Of a stretch of 64,000 nt of DNA, positions 16,013-63,202 are shown one piece after another. The position numbers and the translations under genes are program-made. The stretch lies in the NCBI GenBank assembly GCA_963749235.1, contig CAVVLV010000001.1, positions 410,989 through 474,988 of the forward strand, read 5' to 3'. Within the stretch, counting starts at the first letter, position 1. Every line of letters begins with the position of its first letter. Source of the stretch: an uncultured Thermoplasmata archaeon. Its GTDB lineage: Archaea; Thermoplasmatota; Thermoplasmata; Lutacidiplasmatales; UBA184. A model generated the notes under the pieces. It searched no databases and had not been told where the DNA came from. It was given only the letters and a program-made list of their open reading frames with translations.

Positions 16013-16019
16013 GAGCGTC

Positions 16020-16754
16020 ATGGTACCCCCTTCGCGTCGGCGTGCGCTCCCCCGTCCGCGTCGCGCATACCGAGTGGTCGTGACCGACGTCGACGGGACC
16101 CTGACCGACGCGTCGCGCCGATTGGATCCGGGGGCGGTCGCGGCGATACGCTCGCTCGAGGACCGCGGCATCCCGGTGGTGCTGGCGACCGGGAACGTCC
16201 TCCCCATCGCTCTCGCGCTGCACCGCTCGCTGGGACTCTCCGGCCCGATCGTCGCCGAGAACGGAGGTCTGGTCTGGACTTCGGGACCGAACGGCGAGAA
16301 CCGGATCGAGCGGCTGGCCAACCCGGCTCTCGCCCGCTCGGCGTTCCGGATCCTCGTGCGGGCCGGTCTTCCGGTACGGCGCCTCTTCACCGATCGATGG
16401 CGCGAGAGCGAAGTGGCCCTGGAGGCGAACGTTTCGGTGGCCCGCATCCGCCGCGCGCTCGCGGGACGCCCGGTCCACGTGGAAGCCACCGGGTATGCGA
16501 TCCACTTGATGGAGTCCGGTGCGGGCAAACGCCCTGCGCTGGACCGGGTCTTCGCCGGACTCGGGATCGGCTGGTCCGAAGCGATCGTTCTCGGGGACGG
16601 CGACAACGACGTCGAGATGCTGCGGGCCGCGGGGTTCGGCGTGAGCTTTCCGTCGGCCAGCCCCCGGGCCCGCGCCGCCGCCCGGTACGTGACCCGCCGG
16701 GCGTACGCGGCGGGATTTGTCGAAGGCCTTAAAACGAGCGGAGTTCTCGACTGA
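16020..16754 (+). CDS. HAD-superfamily hydrolase, archaeal phosphoglycolate-phosphatase/Cof-like
   Basis: Motif I VVTDVDGTLTD, motif III K, motif IV GDGDNDVEM. Confidence 0.7.
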   Translation: MVPPSRRRALPRPRRAYRVVVTDVDGTLTDASRRLDPGAVAAIRSLEDRGIPVVLATGNVLPIALALHRSLGLSGPIVAENGGLVWTSGPNGENRIERLANPALARSAFRILVRAGLPVRRLFTDRWRESEVALEANVSVARIRRALAGRPVHVEATGYAIHLMESGAGKRPALDRVFAGLGIGWSEAIVLGDGDNDVEMLRAAGFGVSFPSASPRARAAARYVTRRAYAAGFVEGLKTSGVLD

Positions 16755-17307
16755 CCGGTCTCCACGGGAGAGACCCGCGATGTTCGTCGGTCAGTGCGCG
16801 CGGTGCGGGATTCCGGCCACGCTCGGGTGTACGATCTGCGGGCGGACGTTCTGCCGCGGCTGTCTCGACGCCGACGAGCGACTCTGTTCGGATTGTCTGC
16901 AGTCCCAGCGCCAGACCAAGAACCCTGTCGAAGCCCGGGCGCCGCCCTCCCGTCGGATCGTCCGGCCGCCCAGCGCCCCCGGTCGGGTCTAGGTACTCGA
17001 CGCCGGGGAGTACCAGGGGACCGCCCGGGGTGGCGCGGCCGACCCCGAGAAGGACGACCCCCATCGCTCCGGTCACGAGACCGAAGCCGAGGACCGCCCA
17101 CGCATACTCGCCGAAATTGGGACCGATATGGACGCCGAACACCGTGGCGGGCGAGGTCCGCGCGGCCCAATGGAGCGCTACGTTGACGACCACGCCGAAG
17201 ACCCATCCCATGGCGATGAGGATCCCACCGGCAACGAAGTACCCTGCGCGCTCGTCCCCGCCCGGGTTCTCCGGCGGGGTGGCGGGGGCCTCTTGCAGGT
17301 CGTCCAC
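16729..17307 (-). CDS. Hypothetical membrane protein (2 TM) - 3' extent uncertain, overlaps zinc-ribbon ORF on opposite strand
   Basis: Hydrophobic helices YFVAGGILIAMGWVFGVVVNVAL and AWAVLGFGLVTGAMGVVLLGV; C-terminal 100 aa low-complexity, possibly artefactual. Confidence 0.3.
   Translation of the reverse strand: MDDLQEAPATPPENPGGDERAGYFVAGGILIAMGWVFGVVVNVALHWAARTSPATVFGVHIGPNFGEYAWAVLGFGLVTGAMGVVLLGVGRATPGGPLVLPGVEYLDPTGGAGRPDDPTGGRRPGFDRVLGLALGLQTIRTESLVGVETAAAERPPADRTPERGRNPAPRALTDEHRGSLPWRPVSRELRSF
16780..16992 (+). CDS. Small zinc-ribbon protein (8 Cys in four CxxC pairs)
   Basis: CARCG...CTICG...CRGC...CSDC spacing typical of a double zinc ribbon; overlaps an antisense ORF. Confidence 0.45.
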   Translation: MFVGQCARCGIPATLGCTICGRTFCRGCLDADERLCSDCLQSQRQTKNPVEARAPPSRRIVRPPSAPGRV

Positions 17308-17381
17308 GAGGGCGCGACCGGGCCGGCCGATTATGAGGTTTTGGGAAGGCGCTGCGGCGTGGGGGGGCCGGGCAGCGCGGG

Positions 17382-18005
17382 GTGGTCGGACGCTTTATTT
17401 CGGACGCCCCCGTCCTCCGGACGTCGCTCATGACGCCGCCCGATCCCCCCCGGGAAGTGACGTACCGCGCTGCCACCCTTGCGGACGCCGCGCGGCTCGC
17501 CGACGTCCATCTCCGCTCGGTGCTGGTCGCCGACCGCGGCGTCTCCTCCGAGGACCAGCTCGCGCGTCTCTCCGAGCAATTGGTCGAGCGCGAAGGGCGA
17601 TGGCGCGAGCAGCTCGCCGCACGTCCGGAGGAGCCCGTGCTGGTGGCGGAGCAACCGCCCCTCGGGATCATCGGCTATGCGGTCGGCGCCGCCACCCGCA
17701 AGCCGAGCTTCGGATACGATGGTGAGCTCGTCTCGATCTACCTGCTCCCCGAGTTCCAGCACCGGGGGATCGGACGGGAGCTCGTGCGCCGAATGGTTCG
17801 GACCCTCTATGAACGGGGGTTCGAGCGAGTGCTCGTCCGGGTGCTCACGGCGAACTCGGCTCGTCACTTCTACGAGCGACTCGCGGCGTACCCGATCGGG
17901 GTGACGAAAGTGACCGTCGGAGAGCTGGAACTCGAGGAGAGCCTCTACGGATGGCCGGATGCCGCCCGGGCGTTCGAGGCGAAATCGAGCCCGACCGGCG
18001 TCTAG
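17382..18005 (+). CDS. GNAT-family N-acetyltransferase
   Basis: Acetyl-CoA binding motif QHRGIGRELVRRMV and GNAT core. Confidence 0.7.
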   Translation: MVGRFISDAPVLRTSLMTPPDPPREVTYRAATLADAARLADVHLRSVLVADRGVSSEDQLARLSEQLVEREGRWREQLAARPEEPVLVAEQPPLGIIGYAVGAATRKPSFGYDGELVSIYLLPEFQHRGIGRELVRRMVRTLYERGFERVLVRVLTANSARHFYERLAAYPIGVTKVTVGELELEESLYGWPDAARAFEAKSSPTGV

Positions 18006-47753: not shown

Positions 47754-50700
47754 CGTGCCTCGAGCGGGGTGTTGGGGGGAAGCGCGTCGGCCGTGCGGGC
47801 CCCTTCGCGCGCTTCCACGTCGTGGATGTCGTCCAGGTGGATCCCGATGACGCGGGAGCAGCCGTCGCCGCGCATCGTTACGCCGAACAGGTGGTGGGCG
47901 AACTTGAGCGTCACTTTGCGCAAGGAGATCACGATGAACTGGGCCCGCTCGGCATTCCGCCGAAGCAGGCGGCCCACGTACTCGGCGTTGAGCCCGTCCA
48001 AGGACATGTCGACCTCGTCAAAGACGTAGAGCGGGCTCGGGTCGTACCGCTGGAGCGAGAAGATGAACGCGAGGCTCGCGAGCGACTTCTCCCCGCCCGA
48101 CAGTTGTTCGAGCCGCGCTACCGTCTTTCCGACGGGACGCGCCTTGATCAGGAGTCCACCGGCGAGGGGGTCGTCCGGGTTCTCGAGGGCGATCTCGCCC
48201 TCGCCACCGGCGCTGAGTTCCCCGTAGATCTCCTTGAAGTTCGTGTTGACCTGGACGACGACCTCGGCGATCTTGAGGCGCTTCTTCTTCTCGATCTCGC
48301 CCACGAGGGCGACCAGCTCGGCCTTCTCCGAAGTGAGCCGGGTGGCTTCGGTCCCGAACTCATCCAAGCGCGCCTTCTCGGCGTCGAACTCCTCGACCGC
48401 ACGGAGGTTCACGGCTCCCAACCCCTCGAGTTGCTGGGTGAGCGTCGCGATCTTCCGTTTCAACTCATCCAACGGGACCGGCTTTTCGTCGGCCTCGGGC
48501 TCAGGGAATTCCCGGAGCGCCTCCTGGAGTTCGTTGTACTTGGCCTCGGCCTGGGCGAGTCGGGTCTCCTCCTGGACGACCAGTCCCTGACGGGTCGTGA
48601 GGTTGGCCTGGACCTCGCCGAGCTTTCCCGTGACGTCCAGGCGCTCGGTCTCGAGCGTCCGCTTCTTGTCCGCGAGGACCTTCTGGGTCTCGCTCTGCTT
48701 CGACTCGACCGACTTCAGCGCATCGAGGGCGGCCCGCGCGTCGCGGGCGTCCTTCTCGGACTTCAGGATCTCCTTCTTCTTCGCTGCCAGCTCCGCCTCG
48801 ACCTTGTCGAGCTCGGTCCGGTGGGTGGCGAGGTTCGCGATCAGGGCGGTCAGGGAGGCGCGGGTCGATTCGAGCTCCCCGTTCGCCTTCATCCGCTCGT
48901 CCGCCGTCTTCTGGGCGGACTCCTGGAGGGCGCGCAGGCGGGTCGAGATCGCCTCGGGAAGTTGGCCGAGGTATTCCTCCTGGGCCTTCGCGATCCGCTC
49001 CTTCAGTTGGGCGAGCGAGGCCGCCAATTTTTGAACGGAAGTTTCCGCCGCGGTGAGGGTGAGGGTCGCCTGTTGGGCCTCCTTCTCCGCGGTCGTGATG
49101 CGGGCCCGGGCCGCGCCGAGTTTCTCGCGGGCTGATGTCAGGTCGCCGTCCAGCATCTTACGGGTGGATTGGTGCGCCTGGTCCTGGATCGACCGGGTGG
49201 CGAGTTCCTGGGCGACCACCCGAAGGCGGTCGCTCGTCTTCTGGAGCTCGATGCGCGCCGCGGACTCGGCCTCGCTCTTTTCGCGAAGCTCGTCCCCGAG
49301 CCGCCTCAATTCGACCGCACTGTCGGCGCCCCGGCCCTGGCTGGAGGGGTCGAGGTAGCCGCCCGAAATGGCCCCGGTCGCTTCGATGAGGTCCCCCGTC
49401 AGGGTGACGAGCCGGACTCCGCCCATCTGGGCCCGAGCCTGGGCGAGGTCGCCCATGACGACCGTCTCGCCGAAGACGTACCAGAAGGCGGCCCGCAGCG
49501 ATTCATCAAAGTGGACCAGGTCGACCGCGAACCCTTGGGCTCCGGTGGCCTTGGCCACGACCAGGGACTTCCCGTGGGGGCGGCCTGGGAGCATCTTGTT
49601 GAGGGGGAGGAACGTCGCCCGGCCGCGCTTCTCCTGGCGGAGGAGCTGGATGCACTGTTCGGCGACCTGGTCGCTCTCGACGACCAGGGCCTGGAATCGG
49701 TTGCCTCCCGCCATCTGGAGGGCCGTCTTGTGCTTCGGGTCATACTGGGCGAGCTCTTCGACCGTGCCCCGGATGCCGCCGATCTTGCCCAGATTCCGTT
49801 GGGAGAGGAGATAGTCGACGGCCGCGAGCTGGTTCGGCCGGCCGCCGGCCTCGGAGCGCGCCTTGAGCCGGGCGTCCAGCTGGACGTACCGACGGTTGAG
49901 CTCGCCGACTTCACGCTCGAGACGGTCGGCCTCGGCGGTGAGAGCTTGCTCCTGGGCCTTGAGCGAGTGAAGTTCCTTCTGAAGGTCCCCCGAGCTCCCG
50001 GATTCGGACGATCCCTTCCCCGGGGCGGTCTCCTTCATCCGAAGCTCGAGGTCCTTGACCTCGACCTCCCGTTCCCGGAGCTCGTCCTCCGACTGGGCCT
50101 GGACCTGTTCGGCCGTGTGGAGGGCGGCGCTCGACGCCTCCCGACGCTGGACCGCGTCCTGCCAGGATTTCTGCTGGGCGTCGACCTGTCGCTGGAGCTC
50201 GAGTTGGGACTTGCGGGCTTCGGCGAGCCGGTCGGGCCCCTTCCCCTTCGGGGTCGCGGCGCCCTGGATCTCCCGGGTCTGCCGGTCGGCCTCCGCCTGG
50301 AGGCCCTCGAGCTTCTTCGAGAGCGTCTTCTCGGTGGATTCGAACGTCTCCTTCTGGGTCTCGTCCGACCCGACCGCGGCGGCGAGCTCTTCGAGCCGGG
50401 CCGTAAGCGCGTCGCACGCCTCCCGAAGGTGGGACAAGTTCTGGTCGAGCCGGGCGAAGGCGATCTTCTTCCCGTCCAGTTCCTCCTTGAATTTCACGGC
50501 GGCCGCGCCGCCGGCTTCCGCGACCTCGCGGTCGACCGAATCGATCGCGGTCGCGAGCTCCTTCTGGCGAGTATCGAGCTTCGTCCGTTCGGACTGGAGG
50601 CGGTCGATCTCGGCCCGGGCGGCCTCGACCTGCTTCCGGCAGGTGGTCAGCTCCTGTTCGGCGAGCCGGTGACCGGCCCGCGCGAGGCGAGCCTCGGTCC

Positions 50701-51388
50701 GGCGACGGTCGTCCTGGAGCTCCTTGTACTGGATCGCCTGGAGGCGTTGACTGCCCAAGGTCCCGAGTCGGCCCTGCACCTCTCCCAAGAGCGTCTGGAT
50801 GCGGGCGAGGTTCGAGTCCAAGTCGACCCGCTTTGCCGCCGCATGCTCGAGCTCGTCGTCGTACTGGCTGATCCCCGCGAGGCGCTCCACGAGGCCGCGA
50901 CGCGGGACCGGGCCCATCGTCACGATCTTGTTGACGTCGCCTTGCTGGACCAGGTTGTACCCGTCCCCGCTCAGGCGGGCGTGGGACAGGATGGAGTCGA
51001 TCTCGGTCTGGGTCGTTCGCTTGCCGTTGACGTAGAAGTAGGAGTAGTAGCCGTCGGGGTCGTTCGGGGCCAGCTTGACGTAGCGCGTGACCTCGACCTC
51101 GGCCGAGTCGAGCGGGAGCAGTTTGTCGGCATTGTCGAAGACCAGGGAGACCTCGCACTCGGTCGACGGCTTCTTCGAAGACCCGCCGTTGAAGAAGAGG
51201 TGGGTCAACCGCTCGGCCCGGAGGGCCTTCGAGCTGGTCGGTCCGAGGACGAACAAGATCGCGTCGGAGATGTTCGACTTGCCCATGCCGTTCGGGCCCG
51301 CAACGCCCGTGAACCCGGGCTGGAACGGGATCTCGGTCGCCCCGGAGAAGGACTTGAAATTCCTCAGCTTGATCCGTTTCAGATGCAT
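47750..51388 (-). CDS. smc: Chromosome segregation protein SMC (1212 aa, intact)
   Basis: Walker A GPNGMGKSN, long coiled coils, hinge, signature LSGGEKSL, Walker B LYVFDEVD. Confidence 0.9.
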   Translation of the reverse strand: MHLKRIKLRNFKSFSGATEIPFQPGFTGVAGPNGMGKSNISDAILFVLGPTSSKALRAERLTHLFFNGGSSKKPSTECEVSLVFDNADKLLPLDSAEVEVTRYVKLAPNDPDGYYSYFYVNGKRTTQTEIDSILSHARLSGDGYNLVQQGDVNKIVTMGPVPRRGLVERLAGISQYDDELEHAAAKRVDLDSNLARIQTLLGEVQGRLGTLGSQRLQAIQYKELQDDRRRTEARLARAGHRLAEQELTTCRKQVEAARAEIDRLQSERTKLDTRQKELATAIDSVDREVAEAGGAAAVKFKEELDGKKIAFARLDQNLSHLREACDALTARLEELAAAVGSDETQKETFESTEKTLSKKLEGLQAEADRQTREIQGAATPKGKGPDRLAEARKSQLELQRQVDAQQKSWQDAVQRREASSAALHTAEQVQAQSEDELREREVEVKDLELRMKETAPGKGSSESGSSGDLQKELHSLKAQEQALTAEADRLEREVGELNRRYVQLDARLKARSEAGGRPNQLAAVDYLLSQRNLGKIGGIRGTVEELAQYDPKHKTALQMAGGNRFQALVVESDQVAEQCIQLLRQEKRGRATFLPLNKMLPGRPHGKSLVVAKATGAQGFAVDLVHFDESLRAAFWYVFGETVVMGDLAQARAQMGGVRLVTLTGDLIEATGAISGGYLDPSSQGRGADSAVELRRLGDELREKSEAESAARIELQKTSDRLRVVAQELATRSIQDQAHQSTRKMLDGDLTSAREKLGAARARITTAEKEAQQATLTLTAAETSVQKLAASLAQLKERIAKAQEEYLGQLPEAISTRLRALQESAQKTADERMKANGELESTRASLTALIANLATHRTELDKVEAELAAKKKEILKSEKDARDARAALDALKSVESKQSETQKVLADKKRTLETERLDVTGKLGEVQANLTTRQGLVVQEETRLAQAEAKYNELQEALREFPEPEADEKPVPLDELKRKIATLTQQLEGLGAVNLRAVEEFDAEKARLDEFGTEATRLTSEKAELVALVGEIEKKKRLKIAEVVVQVNTNFKEIYGELSAGGEGEIALENPDDPLAGGLLIKARPVGKTVARLEQLSGGEKSLASLAFIFSLQRYDPSPLYVFDEVDMSLDGLNAEYVGRLLRRNAERAQFIVISLRKVTLKFAHHLFGVTMRGDGCSRVIGIHLDDIHDVEAREGARTADALPPNTPLEAR

Positions 51389-51539
51389 CGAGCGCTCCCC
51401 CTCACTGCCTGAGCCTCTCGCCGCTTCCCATGCCGATTCTGGCTGTTTGTCAGACAGATGTCAGCAAGGGTAAGCTGTTCTGTCAGCCATATTTAAGACT
51501 ACGTTTGGTGAGGCACATCAGGGCCCCGCGCCGGCTGAG
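51389..51539 (-). promoter_or_regulatory. smc operon upstream region: AT-richer, three direct TGTCAG(A/C) repeats and TTAAATAT box
   Basis: ttTGTCAGAcagaTGTCAGCaagggtaagctgttcTGTCAGCcatatttaag read directly. Confidence 0.35.
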
Positions 51540-51729
51540 TCAGGGCTCGGACTCGATCTTCTTGATCTTGCGATCCGCCGCGGACAGGGCGCGATCGTCC
51601 TGTTCGGCTTTGCTCTCGTCCGACGTGCGGCCGGTCTGGGTGGCCGTGTTGTCCGCGTCTTCCCATCGAACTGCGGCCTCGGCTCGCTCCAGGTTGGCCG
51701 CTTCCAGCCGCTTGGCTTTCTCGATCACG
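51540..51729 (-). CDS. Small hypothetical protein (~62 aa, GTG start), Lys-rich C-terminus
   Basis: VIEKAKRLEAANLERAEAAV...RKIKKIESEP; no overlap with stronger ORFs. Confidence 0.3.
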
Positions 51730-51772
51730 GGAGAACTCCCATCCGATGATCGGCGATAAGATCGACCTTCGC

Positions 51773-52090
51773 TCACGGCTCTCGACGACTTCGGAGCGCT
51801 CTCGGGGCCCACCCATGACGATCCATGCGGACGCGCGCCCCGCGAAAGGTCACGCCCTCCATCTCCAGTCGGAGTCGCTGTTCCTGGCCCTGTTCCCCCG
51901 GCAAGGCGATGCGGCCCCCCGCACCCACCACCCGATGCCATGGTAGTCCATCTCCCGCTTGGAGCGCCCAAACCGTGAGCCGGGCCGCACGCGGGAATCC
52001 CGCAGCCTCCGCAGCTTGACCATACGTGATCACCTTGCCCCGGGGTACGGCGGCGATGACGCCTCGGATCCGGGCGAGGTTCGTCATGAT
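51773..52090 (-). CDS. atl: Alkyltransferase-like protein (MGMT DNA-binding fold lacking acceptor Cys: PWHRV instead of PCHRV)
   Basis: GKVITYGQAAEAAGFPRAARLTVWAL...LPWHRVV. Confidence 0.7.
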   Translation of the reverse strand: MMTNLARIRGVIAAVPRGKVITYGQAAEAAGFPRAARLTVWALQAGDGLPWHRVVGAGGRIALPGEQGQEQRLRLEMEGVTFRGARVRMDRHGWAPRALRSRREP

Positions 52091-52741
52091 CCGTCCTGGA
52101 GGGGGACCCACCCCCGGCGATATGAGTGATGGGAACGGCTCGGATCGAGTCGCGGCTCCAATGGGCACGCTCCGGCACCGTTCTTCAGTGGCCTGAACCC
52201 GCGACGGGAAGCGTACCGGAGGGAGGGGTCAATACCGTTCTCGACCTCTGAACGTTGAGATGAGCGAGAATGGCCCGCGCGAGGGTACCCGGGACCTTCC
52301 CCGACGGAGCCCGGAGGCGGGCCATCGGGCCGTCGACCCTCATTCCCCGACCGGAATCGCCTACGACCGGCTGGCCCGACGCCAGCGACGTCGACTCGCG
52401 GAGATCCTCGGGATGGTTCGCTCCGGCCTCTCGTTCGAGGTTATCGTCGCCCAGTACGGCCGGGACCATCCTATCGAGCGGGACGTTACCGAGGAGGAGT
52501 TCCGGGCGGCCGAAGGGAAGGACGGGTCCGCACCAGTTGGTCCGGTCTCCCGCGCCCGGTGACCTTCGCTCCTCGTCGGCCCTCGGGCCATTTCGCCCCT
52601 TAGCCGGAAGGATACCTGCCCCACCTGGAGTTGGTGCTTCTTGCGCGACGAATCGATCTCGTAGCGTTGCACCCGCTCGCTTCCGTCCCGCCAAGCTAAT
52701 GAATTCGGAAACCCAGCGCGGGCCCGCCGACATGGCGACCT

Positions 52742-53539
52742 TTGCGGACCGTTTGGGAGGATTCCCCCGCTGGGTCACCGAGGAGTACCTGGACGGAGAC
52801 CCGAAAGTCGGTCTTCACGGCCCCCGCCCATCTTGGAGCGTTCCGTCGGGCCTACCGGAACGCACGCGCCCTCCCGGTTCAGATCGCGAAGCTGACCTCC
52901 ACCCCACCCCCCCAGATGCGGACCTGGCTGAACGACCTGCGACGGACCGGTCTCGCCCAGGAGATCCGTTCCCGTTGCCCGCAGGCCACGGGGATGGGCA
53001 GCCCGAATGCCGAGGTTCTCTACCTTTTCGTGCGGGCCGCTCGACCGCGTGTCGTCGTGGAGACCGGGGTGGAGCGCGGAGTGAGCAGCGCCTACTTCCT
53101 TCAGGGCCTTTCGGACAACGGAGGGGGCGAGCTCTGGTCGATCGATCTTCCTACCATCGGCCCCTCGGGTCGTGTGAACCAGGACGGTCGCCTGGATCGC
53201 GCCCACGTGGATTCGATCGACCAGGTCGGTCAAGCCGTCCCCGACCGGCTTCGGAAACGGTGGCACCTGTCCCTTGGGGACGCCAAGGAGCTGCTGCCCA
53301 AAGTGGCCGCACCGGATCCATGGGACATCTTCTTCCACGACTCCGACCATAGCCGGGCCCACATGCTCTGGGAGTACGAGACGGCCTGGCCGCACCTTCG
53401 ACCGGGAGGGTTCCTTCTCTCGGACGATGTCCCGGACAACGACGCCTTCGTGACGTTCGCCAAATCCGTCGGCGGGACTCCCTTCCTCTGGCTACGCCGC
53501 GGAGCCCTCGCCCGGACCCCTCCTCCCAGCGCGGGATGA
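52742..53539 (+). CDS. Class I SAM-dependent methyltransferase (TylF/CmcI-like)
   Basis: VVETGVERGVSSAYF glycine-rich loop; DSDHS motif. Confidence 0.65.
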   Translation: MRTVWEDSPAGSPRSTWTETRKSVFTAPAHLGAFRRAYRNARALPVQIAKLTSTPPPQMRTWLNDLRRTGLAQEIRSRCPQATGMGSPNAEVLYLFVRAARPRVVVETGVERGVSSAYFLQGLSDNGGGELWSIDLPTIGPSGRVNQDGRLDRAHVDSIDQVGQAVPDRLRKRWHLSLGDAKELLPKVAAPDPWDIFFHDSDHSRAHMLWEYETAWPHLRPGGFLLSDDVPDNDAFVTFAKSVGGTPFLWLRRGALARTPPPSAG

Positions 53540-53543
53540 GCTC

Positions 53544-56500
53544 ATGATAGAAGTCCGAGACTTGGACTCGTCCGTCTCGGAGCGGCGAACTTTCAGGGGC
53601 AGCCCCTCCACGAATGGGAGAGGCCGAGTCAGTCCCTCATTGGCCCCCCTCCCTTCTGCTCTCTCGAGTCCCTACGTCGGGAGGGCGAATCGAGGTTCCC
53701 GAAAGGGGGCCGTCGTAACCCGGACTCTCGCTGTGGCGATCGCAGCCTCCTTTGTCTTCACATTAGTGCCGAGCGGATCGGTTCCGGTCGCGTTCTCAGC
53801 CCCGGACGTGACCTCCGCGGCGTCCCAATCACCTCAGGTCACCGGCCCCACGCTCTCGCTGGTCTGGACTAACGTCACGGCGAGTGCCGGTCCCGTGCCC
53901 CAGTGCCGGGATTCCGAGGGGCTGGCGTACGACACGGCCCTGGGCGAGGTAGTGATGTTCGGTGGGGTCTCTCAATGCGGTGGGCAGCCGAATGCCTACT
54001 CGCTCGCGGACACGTGGACCTATTCGGGCGCGGCGTGGACCAACATTTCGGGGTCCATGGTGACCGTTCCATCGGCTCGCTGGGGCATGGTCATGGTGTA
54101 TGATCCGGCCCTGAGGGAGGTCGTCCTGTTCGGCGGCACCGACGCGTTCGGAAACACCAACGATCAGACGTGGCTCTTCAACGGGACGTGGTTCGACAAC
54201 ACGTCGAACGAGACGGCATCGCCGCCGGCAATGTACGGGGCGGCGGCGACGTACGACCCGTCCCTGGGGGGCGTCCTAGTCTATGGGGGCGTCAGCGGCT
54301 TCGGTGGAACGACCTACAGTGGGACGTATCTCTTCAAGAACGGCCAATGGACCCAGTTGTCGGTCTCCGGTCCAGACCCCTTGCGCTCTGCCGGCCTGGT
54401 CTACGATAACGCCACCAACCAGAGTCTCTTGTTCGGAGGTTGGGATTCCAACAGTAACGCCCCCAGCAATGACGTGTGGGCATTCGCGTCCGGCTCTTGG
54501 TCGAGAATCTCCGTTTCGGGCACACTCCCCTCCGCGCGGTACTCCTTCGGAGAAGTGTATGATCCGGTGACCGCCAGCATCCTAGAATTCGGGGGGTTTG
54601 GGGGGGCGGTCACCCAGTACGTCGTGGGAGACAGCTGGGTGTACGCGAACCATACATGGACCAACGCCACCAGCACCCTCGCAGGGTCCTCCGCTGCACC
54701 TCGAGGCGGCGCCCGGCTGGTTTGGGACCCGGCGACCGATGTGGTCCTCCTCTTCGGAGGACAGGCCAACAGCGTCCGGAACAACGATACGTGGCTGGCC
54801 GTCCCACTCTCGCCGCCCGCGCTTTCGGTGACACCCGCCGCGATCGCACCGGGCCAGCGAGTGGACGTCAACGCCACCGTTACCGGCGGTGAGTTCCCGC
54901 TTACCTACTCCTATTCCGGACTCCCCTCCGGTTGCGTGTCCGTGAATGCGACCAATCTTTCGTGCTCCCCAAGCGGAACCGGGGAGTACACCGTATCGGT
55001 TCGGGTCCACGATCCGACGGGAAGCAACGGCACCGCGTCGGCGAGCCTGACGATTGGTTCCCCCGTAGCGATCACCTCGTTCACCGCGGTCCCCTCCAAT
55101 CTTCCGGTCGGCTCGACCTCGGACCTCAACGTCACCGCTACCGGGGGCTCGGCGCCGTACACCTACAGCTACACCGGGCTACCGCCGAACTGTGCGAGCG
55201 AGAATACCAGCCGCCTGACCTGCGCGAGCGAGTATGCCGGAAGCTTCAATGTGGTCGCCCACGTCGTCGATGCCGACCACGCGACGGCGCCGACGACATC
55301 GGTGATGGTGACGTACGTCTCCCAGGGCCCTTCCGGAACGTTCGGTTGGACCAACATCTCGTCGTTCGAGAAGAAGACCCCCGCCTGCCGGGACTCCGAG
55401 GGCTTGGTCTACGACCCGGCACTCGGAACGACGGTGATGTTCGGCGGGGTCTCGCAGTGTGGCCAGGTGAACTCCTACTCGGACGGGGACACGTGGACCT
55501 TCTCGAGTGGCCAGTGGACGAACATCTCGAGTTCGGTGGCGACGGCCCCCTCGGCGCGATGGGGGATGGTCATGGTGTACGACCCGGCCGAGTCGGAGGT
55601 CGTCTTGTTCGGCGGCTCAGATGTCTACGGGAACGTCAACACTCAAACCTGGACGTTCGACGGGACGTGGACGAACGTGACCGGCTCTCAAACCGTCTCC
55701 CCGCCGGCGTTGTACTCCGCGGGAGCGACCTACGACCCCGTCCTCGGTGGCGTCCTGATCTATGGGGGACAAGCGGGCTTCAACGGACCCACGGTCACTT
55801 ACAACCAGACCTGGCTGTTCAAAGCCGGCCAGTGGTCGCAACTGAATGTCTTCGGCCCTGATCCCCTCCGGTCGCCCTCCCTGGTCTACGACACGGCGAT
55901 CTCCGCGGACCTGTTGTTCGGGGGGGCGGACGGGACCACGGGGACCGACACCGACTCGACCTGGGTGTTCGCGGACGGGGCGTGGACCTTCCTCTCTCCC
56001 TCCTTCGCTCCGTCGGCCCGCTACGACGCGGGGGTCGCGTACCGATCCCACCTCCGCGTCGGTCGTCCTGTTCGGGGGGTTTGTAGCATCGGGGGCTGCG
56101 CTCGAGGACACGTGGGTCTTCGTCAATGGCACCTGGGCCGACCTCACGAGCGAAGTGCACACCGCTCCCTCCGCCCGGGGAGCAGAGCGGCTGGTCTGGG
56201 ACAGTGCCGAGAATTTCGGGATTTCGCTCGGCGGTCAACAGAACGGCTACCGGGTACTCGGACACGTGGGTCTTCCCGACCACTCCGCTCCTCGGCGCTT
56301 CCCTGATCGCTTCCGCGACCGTCGTGGACGTGGGGCAGAACATCTCATGGACCGCCACCACCCTCGGGAGTGCCGGGACGCTCAGCTACACGTATACCGG
56401 CTTGCCGACCGGTTGCGTTTCCACGGACCTCGCGACCCTGTCCTGCCTTCCCACCGGGCCCGGCACATTCGTCGTCACGGTGCAGGTGTCCAATGGTCTG

Positions 56501-57289
56501 GGCCACCAAGTGAACGCGAGTGCGGTGGCCCTCCTCGTCAACCCGGACCCTAGGGTTAGTCCCCTCAGCGCGTCACCCTCCTCGGCCCCAGTCGGTGGTT
56601 CCATCCTGCTGACCACGACGGTGACGGGAGGCACGCTTCCGCTCGCCTACACCTACACGGGTCTGCCGGCCGATTGCCGGACGGCGAACGCCTCCGTGCT
56701 GACCTGCACGAGCTCGCTCGCCGGCTCGTACACCGTGACCGTCCACGTGGTGGACGCCCGGGGTGTCTCGGCCGAGGGTACGGTCCAGATCTCCTTCACG
56801 ACCCCCGTAACCGGAGGTGGAGGCGGTTTCGGTGGCATTTCCTTCCTCGATTGGATCATTCTCGCCGCGGTGATCGCAGCCGCCCTGCTGGTCGGTCTTT
56901 TCCTTGCGAGCCGACGGCGGTCAGCGGATTCCGAATCCTCCGGTGTCGACGAAACCCTTCCTCCTCCTCCACCCGGCGCCGCCCCGGCAACGACTCCACT
57001 TCGACTCTCCCAGCGCGTGGTCGTTCACTTGGGCCAACAAGGTGGGATCGGCCCGTACGCACCCGCCTCGCCTGGACAGACCCAGGCCGGGATCGCGGAG
57101 GAACTGGGAACCGGTCAAAGTAACATCGCCAACGCCCTCGGCCGCTTGGTTGAGTCCGGCCTGGTCGAGGAGCAGCTCGGGCACGTCCAGGGGCAGCCCC
57201 GGCGGCTCAAGGTCTACCAATTGACCTCAAAGGGACAGATGGTGTATCGGGAACTGCGGGGCCTCCCTCACCGAGGACCGGGAGAGTAG
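53544..57289 (+). CDS. Kelch-repeat beta-propeller + PKD-like repeat cell-surface protein with TM anchor and cytoplasmic winged-HTH tail; reading frame interrupted twice (~56042 and ~56245)
   Basis: Signal/TM at N-terminus; many Kelch units (GG...DTW.F..G.W); PKD-like TYTGLP.GC units; TM WIILAAVIAAALLVGLFLA, then SRRRS, PPPPP, and wHTH IAEELGTGQSNIANALGRLVESGLVEE...RLKVYQLT. Confidence 0.65.
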
Positions 57290-57642
57290 GGTCCTTGGGA
57301 CTCGCCCTCCCGTCGGGGGCGTGCGCCCCGCCGCCTGTAGCCTGAACCCTGGCTCTGGGGCCAGTCGCCGGGGTCGCTCTTCCGTGGAAAATCGCCCCGT
57401 GTCCGTGGGAGGATTTCAGCGTGTATCTGGGGTCCGGGGTGTATTCACGCGATATCTCCGGCAGGGGTATTTAGGGCCAGTCGACCGGAAGGAATACTGA
57501 TGACGCTCTCCACCCGCCCCGAGCCCAAAGCTCCCACCGATCCCAGCTTTTCCACCGGCCCGTTCCTCCCGCTTGATTCCCGTCATTTGCCGGTCGCGAG
57601 CCCGCCGGACGTGGTTCCCCTGGCCCGGGGAAGGGGGACCGC

Positions 57643-59980
57643 ATGAGCGCCCCGTTCCCTCGCCGGGGGTCGTTCGTGGTCTTGGTCGTGGGGGTCTTGC
57701 TCCTGGGGGCGCTCGGAGTGACCGTCGCGGTCGACACCCCGGGACTATTCTCCCACGGCCCCCCGCACCTCGCGTCGCAAACCGGCTCGAGCGGTCCGTT
57801 CTCGTGGACCAACATCAGCGCGACCGCGGGTGGGGCGCCGGCGTGTCGGGACTCGGAGGGACTGGTCGATGACGCGGCGCTCGGGGAGGTCATCCTGTTC
57901 GGCGGGGTCTCCCAGTGCGGCCAACCGAACTCCTACTCGCTCGGGGACACCTGGGCCTTCTCGAACGGCACGTGGACGAACCTCTCCTCGTCCCTGACGG
58001 TCGCCCCGTCCCCCCGGTGGGGGATGGCGATGGTCTACGACGCGGCCGCGCAGGAGATCGTACTGTTCGGAGGGACGGACACGTTCGGGAACACGAACGA
58101 CCAGACGTGGACCTTCAACGGGACGTGGACGAACGTCACGGCGGAGCAAACCGTCTCGCCTCCGGCGTTGTTCTCCCCGGGCGCGACATACGACCCCTCG
58201 GTGGGCGGGCTCCTCCTCTACGGCGGGGAGAGTGGGTTCTCGGGCCCGGAGTTCATCTACAACGCGACATGGCTGTTCCACGACGGCCAGTGGAGCGAAC
58301 TGAACGTGATGGGCCCGGACCCGCTCCGCTCTCCTTCGCTCGTGTATGACGCCGCGGCGAACGCCAGCATCCTGTTCGGGGGATACGACGGTCTCACCAA
58401 CGTGCCCATCAATCAGACCTGGTCGTTCGCGAACGATGCGTGGATCCTCCTTCACCCCTCGACCAGTCCCTCCGCCCGATTCACAAGCGGTGCGACCTAC
58501 GACCCCGTCACCGGTGCGATCGTTCTGTTCGCGGGCTTCACCTACCAATTCTGGGCGAGTAACGTCGCGGTCCAGGACACCTGGTCGTTCGCGAACGGGA
58601 CGTGGACCAACGTGACCGTCCCGCACTCGTCGACCCCCAGCCCGCGCGGTGGGGCTCGCATGGTGTGGGACGTGGCGGACGGCTACGGTCTCCTATTCGG
58701 CGGCCAATCGAACGGTGTCCGGTTCAACGACACCTGGACCTTCCCGCTGGCTACGCCCCTTCGCGGCGCGACCCTCACCGCGTCGAGCTCCACGATCTGG
58801 CTCTCGGAGTCAGTCTCCTTCTCGACCTCGACGTCCGGAGGGTTCTACCCGCTGACCTTCGTCTACTCGGGGCTCCCTGCCGGATGCGCGGGCGGCAATC
58901 TGTCGACCTTCACGTGCATCCCCACGGCGATCGGCAATTACACGGTGAGCGTCAACGTCACCGACACCAACCACACGTCGGTCGTCGCCTCCACCATTCT
59001 CTCGGTCGTGACGCCTCCCGTCGGCTCCTTCTCCTGGACGGACATCAGCGCGACCGCGGGTGGGGCGCCGGCGTGTCGGGACTCGGAGGGACTGGTCGAT
59101 GACGCGGCGCTCGGGGAGGTCATCCTGTTCGGCGGGGTCTCCCAGTGCGGCCAACCGAACTCCTACTCGCTCGGGGACACCTGGGCCTTCTCGAACGGCA
59201 CGTGGACGAACCTCTCCTCGTCCCTGACGGTCGCCCCGTCCCCCCGGTGGGGGATGGCGATGGTCTACGACGCGGCCGCGCAGGAGATCGGTACTGTTCG
59301 GAGGGACGGACACGTTCGGGAACACGAACGACCAGACGTGGACCTTCAACGGGACGTGGACGAACGTCACGGCGGAGCAAACCGTCTCGCCTCCGGCGTT
59401 GTTCTCCCCGGGCGCGACATACGACCCCTCGGTGGGCGGGCTCCTCCTCTACGGCGGGGAGAGTGGGTTCTCGGGCCCGGAGTTCATCTACAACGCGACA
59501 TGGCTGTTCCACGACGGCCAGTGGAGCGAACTGAACGTGACGGGCCCGGACCCGCTCCGCTCCCCCACCCTGGTCTACGATGCCGCCACGAGCTCGGACA
59601 TCCTGTTCGGAGGGTTCGACGGAATGACGGGGACCTCCTCGGGCGCGACCTGGAGCTTCGCGAGCGGGGCGTGGACGCTGCTCTCACCCTCGGCGAGCCC
59701 CGGCGCCCGATTCGCGGCCGGCGCGACGTTCGACCCGGCGACCGGCGCGGTCGTCCTGTTCGGCGGCTTCACGACGGAATATGGCAATGTCAACTCGCCG
59801 TTGAGCGACACGTGGACTTTCGTCAACGGAACGTGGGTGAACGTCACCCCCCTTGCGCATTCGGCTCCCAGCCCGCGCGGCGGACCCCGGCTGGTGTGGG
59901 ATGCGACCGACGGATACGGGATCCTGTTCGGTGGCCAGTCCAACGGCTACCGGTACACCGACACCTGGGAGTTCTCCTAG
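57643..59980 (+). CDS. Kelch-repeat cell-surface protein with two ~410-aa modules; reading frame interrupted by 1-nt insertion at ~59291
   Basis: N-terminal signal-anchor; Kelch units; second module continues in ORF 59399-59980. Confidence 0.65.
57812..58332 (+). repeat. Intragenic ~520-bp near-identical direct repeat, copy 1
   Basis: Identical to 59042-59563 except one extra G in copy 2 (atcgtactg vs atcggtactg) and one T/C mismatch near the end. Confidence 0.85.
59042..59563 (+). repeat. Intragenic ~520-bp near-identical direct repeat, copy 2 (offset 1230 bp)
   Basis: See copy 1. Confidence 0.85.
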
Positions 59981-60008: not shown

Positions 60009-60886
60009 TCAAGGAGGGCCGGGGCCTTGGGGGGGTGAGGATTCAGGAGCGAGCCCGGGTGCGGTAGGCGGGATGTCCCTCAGAAGGATGTCGGGGCCAT
60101 CCCCGTGCCAAGCTCCTTGGAGATAGGCCACTCCTCCGATCGTGATTCCGGCGAGGAACCGTGCGGTGGTCCGCCGGGTCAAGCGCAGGAGTCGGACGTA
60201 TTCCGGATACCGGAATCCAATGACGCGGAAGATCCGCGCTCCCCACATCATGTGCGTACCGCGCCGCCAGGGCGACACGGTCGGGGAGCTCCCCGCTCGC
60301 CTCGGTTTGAGGTCGTCCGCCAACCTTGGCAGCAGCACCCGCTCGAACCTCAGCCCGCCCCGGAAGGCCCGGAGCCAGAGCGGTGGCTCCTCCCGCTCCT
60401 GACGGGGCTCGTAGCCACCCACCCGCTCGAACGCCTCCTTCCGCCACGCGTAGACGTGCGTCGAGGAGGGGTCGAAGTCTCCGTTGCCGATCCCGAACGC
60501 CGCGTCGCAGGACGGATGGTCCCGCACGTGCAGCGCGAGGGCACGAAGGACCCCGGGCGCATACCGGTTGTCACCGTCTACCTGAGTCACCACGATCGAG
60601 GTGTGGGCCAACGCGACGGCGAGATTCCGTCCGTCGCCCCGGTGGCACGACCGCTCGATCACCGTGACTTCAGGGTGGGTCCGTGCGACCTCCGCCAGGA
60701 TCGCTTGGGTTCCGTCATTCGACAGGGAATCCACGATGACCAGTTCGCCCTCGCCGGCGACTTGGGGAAGGACCGTTTCCAGCGAATCGCGAAGCGTCCC
60801 GGCGTTGTTTCGCACGGTCATGGTCACGGAGAACCAAGCGGGGGGGCGTCGAGATGTGTCAAGCACTCCGGGCGGCTCGTCAGTCA
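60009..60886 (-). CDS. Glycosyltransferase family 2
   Basis: WFSVTMTVRNNAG...VIVDSLSNDGT...TQVDGDNRY (DxD). Confidence 0.6.
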
Positions 60887-61129
60887 TTCCACCTTGGGTG
60901 CACGCCCGGGACGGATAATGGGTTGGGGACCCCAAGGGGGTCTCCCGCGATTGCGGACCGGGCTGGCGGTCTTCCCTGGGGGGGCACCCCTCCCCTCCTC
61001 GGCCGCACCGCGTCACCCCAAAGGTACGGAGGAGGGCATATCGCCGCCCGCTGCCGGCGAGTGGCGCTCGGTCGAACGCCGTCATCCCGAGAAGCCAATC
61101 CGGGGCCCGCGTCGTCCCAGACCGAAGGA

Positions 61130-62929
61130 CTAGGGAGGGGGCGGGGGTGGGGTTCCGCGAGATCGACGGGCCACCGCCACAGCCACTACAATTGCTACGA
61201 CGGCCACCGCGGCCACGGCGATCAGGACGATCAGCCAAACCGTCGATAAGCCGCCGAGCAGGTTGTTCGAAGATGAGCTCGATGTGACTTGGAACGAGAA
61301 GTTGCCGGTAGCCCGTTCGCCGATGTCGTCCGTGACCGTGACCCGGGGCGCAAAGGTGCCGGCTACCGCAGGGATACACACGAGGACCGACGTGTTGGCA
61401 CTGGCGCACCCCGACGGCAAGGACGCCCACGTGTAGGTGTACGGGGGCAACCCCTGGCGAGCATCGGTCGTGAGGGTCACGCTCTGGCCCAGCGCGAAGG
61501 TCGACAAATTCTGGCTGACCGAGATCGTGAGCGGGGAAACGACCTCGATCCGGAAGCTGTCATGGGCCGAAGTGCTGAGTACCGTGGATACCGACACGTT
61601 GACCGTGTAATTGCCCGGAGCGTGGAACGTGTGACTCACATTGGCGACGGCCGAGAAAGGAGACCCATCTCCAAAGGTCCATCCGTACGAGTACGGGGGA
61701 AGGCCCCCAGTCACCCAGGCAGTGAAACTGACCGGGGAGCCGGCGGCCCCGGTCGTCGGGGCCGAATGCGCGGAGAGTTCCAGGGTCGAGCCGAAGGCCC
61801 ACGTATCGGACTCGTACGAACCCGAAAGCGCAAAGCCGCCGAACTGCCAGACGAGCTCGGAAGAAGGGTCGTAGGCGAGATCCTGAGCCCAGCGCGGGCT
61901 CGGCGCCGAGGGAGTGGCAAACAGGGGCCAGCCATCCGAGGCGTTGTAGGCCCACGTGTCGTTGTAGACGTTCGACCCCACATGGCCGCCGGTCAGGACG
62001 GCGGCGTTGAGGGCCGCGTCGTACGTCAGGACCTGGTAATTCCGCGGGGAGGGGCTCGGAGCGGGGAAGAGCTCGATCCATGCTCCACCCGCAAATGTCC
62101 ACGTGTCGCCGAAGCTCGACGTTTGGACCGCGCTCCAACCGCCGAAGAGGAGGACGAAGCGGTCGGCCGCATCGTACGTCATCGCCAGGGAGAACCGGGG
62201 GGCCGGCGCGTTAGCGGGGTGCGCGAGGGACCACGAGCCCGCATGGTAGGTCCACGTATCGTTGAACGAATTCGAACCGGTCTCGTTCGCTCCCCCGAAT
62301 AGTACGACCTCGTGATCGACGGCGTCGTACGCCATTCCCGGGGAGAACCGGGCCGGCGGGGAGATCGCAGGGTGCACCGGGCTCCAAACGTCGCCGACGA
62401 AGGTCCAAGTGTCCTGGTAGAGGGTGTTCCCGTCGAAGCCGCCGAATAGGACGACATATCCATCGGCCGCGTCGTAGGCAATCCCGGCGTCCGCCCGGGC
62501 CGGAGGAGCGGGACCGATGAGAGTGGCCGTAAGGTTGGTCCAGATCCCGTTCACGAACTTCCAGGTGTCCCCCAACGCCGGGCAGGCGTGGCTGTAGTAG
62601 TAAGTGCCCGAGCTGGGACACCCGCCGAAGAGCAGCGTCATGTTGTCCGCCGGGTCGTACACCATGGCGGCCCCGGCGAGTCCCGGGGGCGAAGACGCAG
62701 GCGGCTCCTCGGTCCATCCCCATACGGCCGAGACAGCCGGGCCCCGAGGGGACCCGGCCGTGATGCGCGGGGTCGAGTGACTCATGCCCCGGGTCAGTTC
62801 GTTGGAAGTGGTGACGCTCCCCGGAAGAACTCGGGAAGCCGGGCTTGCACCTCCGGCGATCGGGCTTAGCACTACGACAAACACGATGGTGAAGCACACC
62901 AAGGCCCGTAGCGCGAGCAGGAATCTCAA
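61130..62929 (-). CDS. Kelch-repeat + PKD-domain cell-surface protein, C-terminal TM anchor + RRSRGTPPPPPP tail
   Basis: Signal peptide; Kelch units; PKD block PYSYGWTFGDGS...HTFHAPGNYTVNVSV; TM VWLIVLIAVAAVAVVAIVVAVAVA. Confidence 0.7.
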   Translation of the reverse strand: MRFLLALRALVCFTIVFVVVLSPIAGGASPASRVLPGSVTTSNELTRGMSHSTPRITAGSPRGPAVSAVWGWTEEPPASSPPGLAGAAMVYDPADNMTLLFGGCPSSGTYYYSHACPALGDTWKFVNGIWTNLTATLIGPAPPARADAGIAYDAADGYVVLFGGFDGNTLYQDTWTFVGDVWSPVHPAISPPARFSPGMAYDAVDHEVVLFGGANETGSNSFNDTWTYHAGSWSLAHPANAPAPRFSLAMTYDAADRFVLLFGGWSAVQTSSFGDTWTFAGGAWIELFPAPSPSPRNYQVLTYDAALNAAVLTGGHVGSNVYNDTWAYNASDGWPLFATPSAPSPRWAQDLAYDPSSELVWQFGGFALSGSYESDTWAFGSTLELSAHSAPTTGAAGSPVSFTAWVTGGLPPYSYGWTFGDGSPFSAVANVSHTFHAPGNYTVNVSVSTVLSTSAHDSFRIEVVSPLTISVSQNLSTFALGQSVTLTTDARQGLPPYTYTWASLPSGCASANTSVLVCIPAVAGTFAPRVTVTDDIGERATGNFSFQVTSSSSSNNLLGGLSTVWLIVLIAVAAVAVVAIVVAVAVARRSRGTPPPPPP

Positions 62930-63202
62930 CCTCCGCCCGAAACCGACCCTCCCGTCTAGGTTCTGTCTCGAGGGACGGAGCGAGCCAGTCTATGGACCCT
63001 CGTGGCGGGAAACCAAGCTGGGGCGAGGGGGGCGAATGCAGGCCCTCGGCTTGCATCCCGGCCCTTTTGCTGAGGGCGCGTTCTCCGGCAAGTTTATATA
63101 CTATAGAGTCGCGTGGCCGCCCTGAACGGCACGGTGGAAACTTGAACGCAATGGTACTCGAACCAGCCCCCGGAGCCCCCCGAGGCGCAATCGATCAAGT
63201 CG

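Follow-up and report, generated by a model that had tools for sequence, protein, structure and literature searches.

A winged-helix-tailed Kelch/PKD surface protein of an uncultured Thermoplasmata archaeon as a putative transmembrane transcription regulator

The window (i.e., the whole 64,000-nucleotide stretch of DNA analyzed here) derives from an uncultured Thermoplasmata archaeon and harbors, at 53544..57289 (+), a gene whose product is a large cell-surface protein, predicted to be glycosylated, that ends in a winged helix-turn-helix (wHTH) domain. As judged from its open reading frames and three-frame translation, the gene encodes 1247 aa once two spurious bases are removed, and the corrected product runs from a signal/anchor through two rounds of one Kelch propeller plus two Ig/PKD-like domains to a transmembrane (TM) helix, a linker and the wHTH. 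Translation of the ORF at 56126-57289 (+) yields two Ig/PKD-like domains, the TM helix, the linker and the wHTH; its last part, 56780-57289, holds in one frame the final portion of an Ig/PKD-like domain, a single TM helix, an SRRRS stop-transfer cluster, a Pro-rich linker and the winged helix. An exact look-up of the window ORF matched no record, tblastn of the tail found no second wHTH copy in the window, and the window has no tRNA or Rfam matches.

Three-frame translation places a shift from frame 0 to 1 near 56041 and another from frame 1 to 2 near 56252. We compared the window with L035, an independent 9-kb contig from another assembly that is 99.74% identical over 8.85 kb and differs from it by 12 single-base indels over that distance. 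Neither the extra A at 56041..56041 (+) nor the extra G within a G run at 56252..56252 (+) is present in L035, whose product P0003 is continuous at these positions (as ..YDAGVASDPTSASVV.. and ..QQNGYRYSDTWVF.., respectively). Because so nearly identical a contig is continuous across both sites, the two frameshifts are assembly errors. L035 has private indels of its own at 54147, 54214, 55715, 56727 and 57106, positions at which the frame is kept in the window but lost in L035; the indel errors are thus private to each assembly, and the consensus gene is therefore intact. With the two bases deleted the translation is uninterrupted, with zero internal stops, and the comparison with L035 revealed no window indel separating the PKD domains, the TM helix and the wHTH.

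On the same strand, a Methyltransf_24 gene (52742..53539, +; Pfam 1.8e-19) ends 4 nt before the window gene, and the two are likely co-transcribed. The gene that follows encodes another Kelch/PKD surface protein and is the presumed regulatory target (57500..59980, +); it is supported by Pfam Kelch matches, the list of indels and a continuous gene call in L035 (7494-8921), and it is read from the window without one A at 57606, with a further frameshift near 59289 and an alternative start ATG at 57643. The order of methyltransferase gene before and Kelch/PKD gene after is common to the window, L035 and L001 (a locus from an independent MAG), and the DNA upstream in L001 encodes the same methyltransferase C-terminus.

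The N-terminal basic region and hydrophobic segment of the window protein (KGAVVTRTLAVAIAASFVFTLVPSGSVPVAFSAP; 53709..53798, +) were recognized by translation as a signal peptide or signal anchor, and clear signal peptides occupy the corresponding position in relatives. The ectodomain core (53856..56320, +, approximate borders), delimited by the Pfam models Kelch_KLHDC2_KLHL20_DRC7, Beta-prop_ATRN-LZTR1 and PKD, consists of Kelch propeller 1, Ig/PKD pair 1 and Kelch propeller 2, and is followed by a membrane-proximal Ig/PKD-like pair (56300..56800, +; Pfam PKD 2.6e-6, above cut-off). With Kelch_KLHDC2_KLHL20_DRC7 at 136.7 bits (Kelch 9e-40) and PKD at 27.8 bits (cut-off 23.5), both domains exceed their Pfam thresholds and, together with the signal/anchor and the TM helix, qualify the product as a Kelch/PKD cell-surface protein. 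The single TM helix (ISFLDWIILAAVIAAALLVGLFLA, 24 residues; 56837..56908, +) was identified by translation, hydropathy and alignment with the TM helix of the relative P0002, and it is succeeded by the SRRRS cluster and a 27-aa Pro-rich linker (56909..56989, +; translation and family comparison), both predicted to be cytoplasmic. Three Arg lie C-terminal to the TM helix and none N-terminal to it, and an Arg directly after the helix is nearly invariant across the wHTH-tail family. N-X-S/T sequons number 24 in the ectodomain (9.9 expected from composition), most of them within its core, vs 0 in the 126-aa tail. The signal/anchor, the post-TM RRR and the sequon asymmetry all agree, and from these sequence features we predict that the ectodomain is outside and the wHTH cytoplasmic. 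Measured against the published definition of a transmembrane regulator (PMC10269533), the TM helix is met, as is, by prediction, a DNA-binding domain in the same polypeptide; the cytoplasmic placement of that domain is met by prediction only.

The final 99 aa of the protein (56990..57286, +; stop codon 57287-57289, +) constitute the wHTH, which includes IAEELGTGQSNIANALGRLVESGLVEE...RRLKVYQLTSKG, the sequence quoted in the original prediction. Its parts (all +) are H1 (57005-57040), H2 (57083-57106), the recognition helix H3 (57116-57157), a beta-hairpin wing (57164-57223) and H4 (57227-57262). An AlphaFold2 model built with a 49-tail family alignment has a pLDDT of 93.3 and the order H1-H2-H3-beta-hairpin wing-H4 (DSSP: H6-17, H32-39, H43-56, E59-66, E72-78, H80-91), which meets the PadR-type alpha1-alpha2-alpha3-beta-beta-alpha4 topology. 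The profile of the same 49 tails retrieves MarR- and PadR-type structures from the PDB at ~1e-5, aligning with Rv3488 (5zhc) over 88 residues, and Foldseek returns SlyA, MepR-DNA, ZitR-DNA and PadR-DNA with a probability of 1.0 and query-normalised TM-scores of ~0.6-0.65. Helix 3 and an Arg/His-rich wing (RHVxGxPRRLKVYxLT) are conserved in the family. By computation, then, the profile, the homologues, AlphaFold2 and Foldseek show that the tail is a winged helix and more than a chance resemblance. The domain nevertheless falls outside the MarR and PadR families by curated thresholds: its Pfam matches (MarR_2 at 6.4e-5, PadR, HTH_27, TrmB and others) are all below cut-off, at 23.5 bits vs 27 for MarR_2, 15.3 vs 24.6 for MarR (PF01047 / PF12802) and 19.4 vs 27 for PadR (PF03551), and E<=1e-3 is attained by no more than 11 of the 77 relatives. 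No NCBIfam model matched the window tail, and the relative P0010 scores 26.3 against a cut-off of 101.8. Nor does it have the MarR dimer architecture, with 99 aa vs ~140 aa and one helix on each side of the HTH-wing core, and it is outside the ToxR type by both domain type and domain order; the OmpR-type family (Trans_reg_C) is not among its Pfam matches at E<=0.1.

The original prediction, made from the sequence alone, had proposed a Kelch/PKD ectodomain, a single TM helix and a C-terminal wHTH, and this architecture held after indel correction (translation, Pfam and AlphaFold2). Its placement of the wHTH in the TrmB/MarR/PadR type held at the level of fold (AlphaFold2, Foldseek and the PDB profile), with Pfam scores that remain sub-threshold; the two upstream frameshifts that it pointed out were confirmed, placed at 56041 and 56252 and corrected against L035; and the N-out/C-in topology that it inferred is supported by sequence-based predictions (signal/anchor, RRR and sequons). 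A wHTH lying in a different true frame would have refuted it; since the TM helix and wHTH are in frame with the preceding PKD domains, this is not the case.

The wHTH tail defines a large, previously undescribed family that is mostly missed by standard domain models. A word-indexed protein search with the 162-aa tail returned one fragment only, and an exhaustive HMMER search was required: with the TM helix plus tail as query, it yielded 734 clusters (i.e., representatives at 50% identity) at E<=1e-3 and 280 at E<=1e-10. Among the best 150 members, the wHTH ends <=52 residues from the C-terminus in 148. The 148 classified representatives comprise 66 with an ectodomain of >60 aa, a TM helix and the wHTH, 35 with a short N-terminus, a TM helix and the wHTH, 22 without a detectable TM helix and 25 fragments, such that the TM helix lies upstream of the wHTH in 101 of 123 non-fragment members. 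Linkers between the TM helix and wHTH span 19-135 aa (median 78; 27 aa in the window protein). The ectodomains of 70 of the 77 longer members contain PKD domains, and a typical member has a signal peptide, two PKD domains, a TM helix, a linker and the wHTH. P0002 (886 aa, from locus L001) has the same Kelch-PKD-TM-wHTH layout as the window gene, and in P0143 the same wHTH is attached to an AAA_16-TPR STAND module. Scanning species-representative genomes, which we seeded with a closer 8-sequence alignment because the 49-sequence alignment was too diverse, uncovered 28 loci, all in MAGs (27 labelled Thermoplasmata archaeon and one Methanobacteriota archaeon), and several genomes have two such loci. 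Source annotations call these proteins 'hypothetical protein' or assign them generic MarR/PadR labels, and we found no paper or curated model describing the family in the literature searched, Pfam or NCBIfam.

The family usually occurs as a two-gene cassette. Gene A specifies a PKD/Kelch surface protein of 450-1400 aa that ends in a TM helix, a basic stretch and a conserved helix of the EGExLVRELE type, which resembles H4 of the wHTH; gene B, which follows, specifies a TM-linker-wHTH protein, with or without two PKD domains in front. Gene A is directly upstream and on the same strand in ~22 of 25 loci with long-form genes, and short-form genes (TM-linker-wHTH or soluble) follow a gene for a large TM-anchored surface protein in all 10 loci examined (L011, L016, L028, L029, L032, L033, L034, L039, L040 and L041). 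PKD domains were detected in every one of 23 gene A products scanned and Kelch propellers in 9. The gene A-type tail motif EGExLVRE is absent throughout the window. With one TM helix between a Kelch-type ectodomain and the wHTH tail, the window gene has the appearance of an A-type ectodomain joined to a B-type tail, and by a Rosetta-stone argument this fusion and that of P0002 suggest that A and B work together.

A first clue to a promoter element was that translations of the DNA upstream of gene A were oddly conserved. Gene A promoters contain two tandem copies of ~GGCGTATCTCC (GCGTATC-type) with an 11-nt period, followed by a gap of 8-10 nt, an AT-rich TATA-like box, ~27 nt and the ATG, an arrangement from which we infer that the transcripts may be leaderless. 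In the 450 kb examined there are 16 exact GTAT-N7-GTAT dyads, where 1.24 are expected and 50 composition-preserving shuffles gave at most 4. All dyads checked are at gene A promoters (including those of L002, L004, L008-L010, L012, L019, L024, L026 and L028; the L004 site reads GGCGTATCTCCGGCGTATCTTC), and most are 8-10 nt upstream of the TATA-like box; L013, L015 and L021 have the exact dyad upstream and inverted, with a more degenerate forward copy beside the TATA box. The base preceding GTAT tracks the recognition-helix subfamily: helix 3 NALTN (RQNALTNVLRRL) pairs with GC-GTATC at 14 loci, NQVSN (GQNQVSNVLRRL) with GT-GTAT at 5 loci, GTLxK (RQGTLxKVLSRL) with GA-GTAT at 2 loci, and SN(I/V)AN (QSN(I/V)ANALGR) with GTGTAT(T/A)CAC..GATATC in the window and L001. 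Direct read-out predicts such covariation, and shared descent of the cassette lineages confounds it.

In the window, the candidate operator (57421..57459, +) lies between the window gene and the neighboring Kelch/PKD gene and consists of GTGTATC (57421-57427) and a GTGTATTCAC-GCGATATCTCC pair with an 11-nt period (57439-57459). It shares its layout with 20 cassette promoters and is trailed by a TATA-like box (GGTATTTAGG; 57466..57475, +), assigned by sequence reading and alignment with the AT-rich boxes of other promoters, ~29 nt before the ATG at 57500. At 14.9, its PWM score is the best in the window, and it is not significant by PWM alone against shuffled windows, whose maxima average 13.4 and reach 18.9. 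The element owes its credibility to its position and to a counterpart following the orthologous gene in L001, not to its score. A search for GTATC-N6-GTATC with 1 mismatch found nothing relevant in the window, the window element being a degenerate variant. We found no repeat upstream of the window gene itself or of the Methyltransf_24 gene, and at the window's other Kelch/PKD paralog (61130-62929, minus strand) a strong TATA box stands without any repeat. When metagenome contigs were scanned with a 20-mer, 3 matches came up: one (L037) is a true cassette promoter, with repeat, TATA box, ATG and PKD surface protein, and the remaining two are in unrelated bacterial-like contexts, which makes the scan a weak reciprocal test.

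A surface protein with a cytoplasmic wHTH, in a family whose genes sit beside repeat-bearing surface-protein genes, makes a direct link from the cell surface to gene control probable. The evidence tips modestly towards the window protein being a one-component transmembrane transcription regulator, ToxR-like with inverted topology, that remains tethered while acting on the repeats of the adjacent gene; DNA binding, regulation and signal are all inferred. In this model, a type-I membrane protein would expose its Kelch/PKD ectodomain outside the cell and, through a single helix and a short flexible linker, hold a MarR/PadR-like winged helix in the cytoplasm. The winged helix would bind the tandem GTAT-type repeats at 57421-57459, just upstream of the BRE/TATA of the adjacent Kelch/PKD gene; sites of archaeal activators are usually located just upstream of the TATA box. 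The activity of the wHTH would depend on the condition of the ectodomain (i.e., ligand, partner protein or clustering), with or without a contribution from gene A, and the regulator, staying in the membrane like ToxR, TcpP and CadC, would control, and probably activate, the adjacent surface-protein gene. Most relatives would split the job between gene A, a PKD/Kelch surface protein with the repeats in its promoter, and gene B, the wHTH protein.

Support for this reading is circumstantial. The STAND-ATPase member P0143 has the same wHTH as its output domain, and STAND regulators carry their DNA-binding output at the position that the wHTH holds in P0143; moreover, the promoter repeat variants follow the recognition-helix subfamily. 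Several points weigh against it. No experiment shows DNA binding, and direct repeats are unusual for the MarR/PadR fold. MarR/PadR proteins normally bind palindromes as dimers by means of extra helices, which the 99-aa domain lacks. The window linker, at only 27 aa, gives a tethered domain short reach from the membrane, the repeats could possibly be bound by another, soluble factor, the window gene's own promoter has no repeat, and the ectodomain ligand is unidentified.

Three rival explanations deserve consideration, the least credible of which is that the fusion is an artefact (an error-prone assembly having joined a Kelch/PKD gene to a regulator gene) or a frameshifted pseudogene. The window gene does have two frameshifts, with more next door, single-base indel errors are evident in the assembly, and many relatives have one gene for the surface protein and another for the wHTH protein. 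However, PKD domains, TM helix, linker and wHTH share one frame with no window indel, L035 differing there by its own errors only; the frameshifts are private to each assembly and leave the consensus intact; P0002, in an independent MAG, repeats the colinear architecture over 886 aa and has one TM helix as well; and one TM helix separates the ectodomain from the wHTH, whereas a joined gene pair would give two. We regard this explanation as very unlikely, and for the window gene the comparison with L035 and P0002 contradicts it. It is also unlikely that the active form is a soluble wHTH, freed by regulated proteolysis after an ectodomain event (as in Notch, SREBP or RsiW) and acting on the same DNA target. 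A type-I topology with a C-terminal effector is that of Notch-like released factors, the window linker is short at 27 aa, the 22 of 148 members without a detectable TM helix imply that the domain can work untethered, and an S53 peptidase gene lies 7.4 kb upstream, though not adjacent. Against release, no protease gene is conserved in the cassettes and neighborhoods inspected, we saw no conserved cleavage motif in the variable Pro-rich linkers, and membrane-bound transmembrane regulators function without release (PMC10269533).

A possible alternative is that the winged helix is a cytoplasmic module for protein interaction or anchoring rather than a transcription factor, binding the EGExLVRELE helix in the tail of the partner surface protein or tethering the surface complex non-specifically to the nucleoid, with the repeats belonging to another regulator. 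Across this large family of paralogs, the exposed wing and helix 3 show unusual conservation, as would fit a common partner; the conserved tail helix of gene A resembles H4 of the wHTH; the MarR dimerisation helices are missing from the domain; and winged helices bind proteins in other systems. On the other hand, the closest folds are all sequence-specific DNA binders, the STAND-wHTH member fits a DNA-binding output role, the repeat is conserved, cassette-specific and covaries with helix 3, and the subfamilies differ at the helix-3 positions by which bases are usually read. We retain the tethered regulator as the preferred reading. A bolder version of it, which we consider unlikely, sees a lineage-specific form of surface signalling in Thermoplasmata of soil and peat: PKD/Kelch adhesin-like proteins, paired or fused, would detect contact with other cells, with glycans or with the lattice of their own surface and signal via a single helix to a tethered wHTH that activates the surface-protein operon at GTAT repeats, in a self-regulating, Notch-like juxtacrine circuit in which the gene A tail helix is the switch that holds or frees the wHTH.

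Returning to the tethered regulator, the original prediction had suggested looking for homologues of Kelch-TM-wHTH architecture and for conserved palindromes in neighboring promoters. The architecture was found in P0002 of L001, along with >100 relatives with a TM helix upstream of a C-terminal wHTH, and the conserved promoter element found is the tandem GTAT-type direct repeat at gene A promoters. Its proposal of a one-component transcription factor with ToxR-like logic in inverted order is supported circumstantially, with DNA binding inferred only, and for its suggestion of release by intramembrane proteolysis there is no evidence for or against. Its remark that it was not aware of a characterized archaeal system of this kind agrees with our finding no description of the family in the literature searched. 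What it missed is that the two-gene cassette is the common form and that the window gene is a fusion.

Little of archaeal signal transduction has been mapped, and studies of membrane-bound regulators in archaea extend to no more than a handful, of the ArnR type. To these the present analysis adds a family that is large (at least 734 clusters at 50% identity) and mostly invisible to standard domain models, whose layout is ToxR-like but inverted and which comes with a conserved partner gene and a specific predicted operator; the regulator hypothesis is therefore open to direct testing. The family suggests how Thermoplasmata that are wall-less or poor in S-layer may control their abundant Kelch/PKD surface proteins, and it supplies an annotation rule for genes that hundreds of MAGs now list as 'hypothetical' or 'MarR/PadR family'.

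Transmembrane transcription regulators are known in both bacteria and archaea (PMC10269533; ArnR, PMC6396743), and the window protein shares features with several established systems. Like the Notch-type receptors of eukaryotes, it has a type-I topology, a repeat-rich ectodomain and a transcription effector on its cytoplasmic tail, but there is no homology and no evidence of cleavage, and a prokaryotic tail can reach DNA without release. The hybrid two-component systems of Bacteroides (PMC10269533) similarly unite within one polypeptide an N-terminal extracytoplasmic beta-propeller/Y_Y_Y sensor, a TM segment and, at the C-terminus, a cytoplasmic DNA-binding domain; they relay the signal via histidine-kinase and receiver domains to an AraC HTH, whereas the window protein has only a Pro-rich linker. 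Short PadR/MarR regulators (Rv3488, 5zhc; B. subtilis PadR, 5x11; MepR, 4lln; SlyA, 1lj9) have the same H1-H2-H3-wing-H4 order and provide the best profile and structural matches, but they are soluble, palindrome-binding homodimers with added dimerisation helices, unlike the window domain, which is 99 aa long, membrane-tethered, below the Pfam and NCBIfam cut-offs and associated with direct repeats. ArnR and ArnR1 of Sulfolobus acidocaldarius (PMC6396743) are, likewise, archaeal, membrane-anchored HTH regulators of surface-structure genes; however, they show no sequence relationship to the wHTH-tail family, are crenarchaeal rather than from Thermoplasmata, and ArnR reportedly has an N-terminal HTH and C-terminal TM helices without a large ectodomain (consistent with the abstract of PMC6396743).

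A further close functional parallel is with ToxR, TcpP and CadC (surveyed in the transmembrane-regulator census, PMC10269533), which are single-pass proteins that join an extracytoplasmic sensor to a cytoplasmic winged-helix DNA-binding domain. They also act at tandem direct repeats upstream of the promoter, for which the wHTH-tail family has candidate sites, and ToxR and TcpP often have a second membrane protein encoded next door (ToxS and TcpH), as gene A is in the wHTH-tail family. In contrast to theirs, which is OmpR/PhoB-like, the winged helix of the window protein is MarR/PadR-like, and most members of its family escape Pfam-based detection of DNA-binding domains; its ectodomain is a giant Kelch/PKD array; and, the host being an archaeon, its target would be a TBP/TFB promoter. 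Its layout is also inverted: whereas ToxR and CadC proceed from an N-terminal wHTH through a TM helix to a C-terminal periplasmic domain, the window protein places its sensor at the N-terminus and, by prediction, outside the cell, with the DNA-binding domain at the C-terminus.

In gene A products, the PKD/Kelch surface proteins that most relatives encode separately from the TM-linker-wHTH protein, the C-terminus consists of a TM followed by a basic stretch and then by a conserved cytoplasmic helix of EGExLVRELE type; this arrangement is seen at loci L008, L011, L013, L014, L017, L028, L029, L032, L034, L040 and L041. The helix is similar to helix H4 of the wHTH (RGEALARELR), and could be either a remnant of gene fission or a helix through which the wHTH protein is contacted.

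In addition to the TATA-proximal dyad, some cassette promoters (L013:2443, L015:2625 and L021:2178) have an inverted GTATC dyad about 25-40 nt further upstream, bringing the half-sites to four in total. The 11-mer repeat can also occur beyond archaeal cassettes, since three tandem copies of GTATCTCCGGC lie at 1110-1150 of L038, an unrelated, bacterial-like metagenome contig.

Two further Kelch/PKD genes lie downstream of the wHTH gene. Its neighbour ends at 59980 without a C-terminal TM, directly abutting a GT2 gene that converges on it from the minus strand (60009-61430), and about 1 kb of its sequence is duplicated internally (57745-58856 versus 59022-59968, 86% identity). The other (61130-62929, minus strand) encodes a 599-aa surface protein with a C-terminal TM and RRSRGTPPPPPP that lacks the wHTH; in its promoter, at about 63095-63110, there is a strong TATAGTATATAAA box without any GTAT repeats. 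Elsewhere, a surface protein with many N-glycosylation sequons runs in from the window edge (29-2188, plus strand) and has a TM at its C-terminal end, followed by a long cytoplasmic tail rich in Pro and Arg. An IS66-family transposase (DDE_Tnp_IS66, 7e-40, plus zf-IS66) occupies 5345-6889 on the minus strand. Long ORFs at 7573-10821 and 14963-17671 (both minus) and at 2246-3862 and 3889-5205 (both plus) have good codon-position GC bias and no Pfam match at 1e-5.

The gene neighbouring the wHTH gene is frameshifted at 57606 and at about 59289. In a pairwise comparison, positions 50008-58856 were 99.74% identical to the independent contig L035 (ERZ25039509 contig_119389), from which they are separated by 12 single-base indels, several within short homopolymers. 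Both assemblies look like error-prone long-read products, so the additional frameshifted ORFs of the window are probably errors as well.

The family wHTH also occurs outside membrane proteins: P0143 and the product of L025:3061-6324 represent a soluble protein of 989-1087 aa in which an AAA_16 ATPase and TPR repeats precede the same C-terminal wHTH. A lone GCCGTATCTCC unit with a TATA-like box is found at L025:1704. The AAA_16-TPR part of this protein is STAND/MalT-like.
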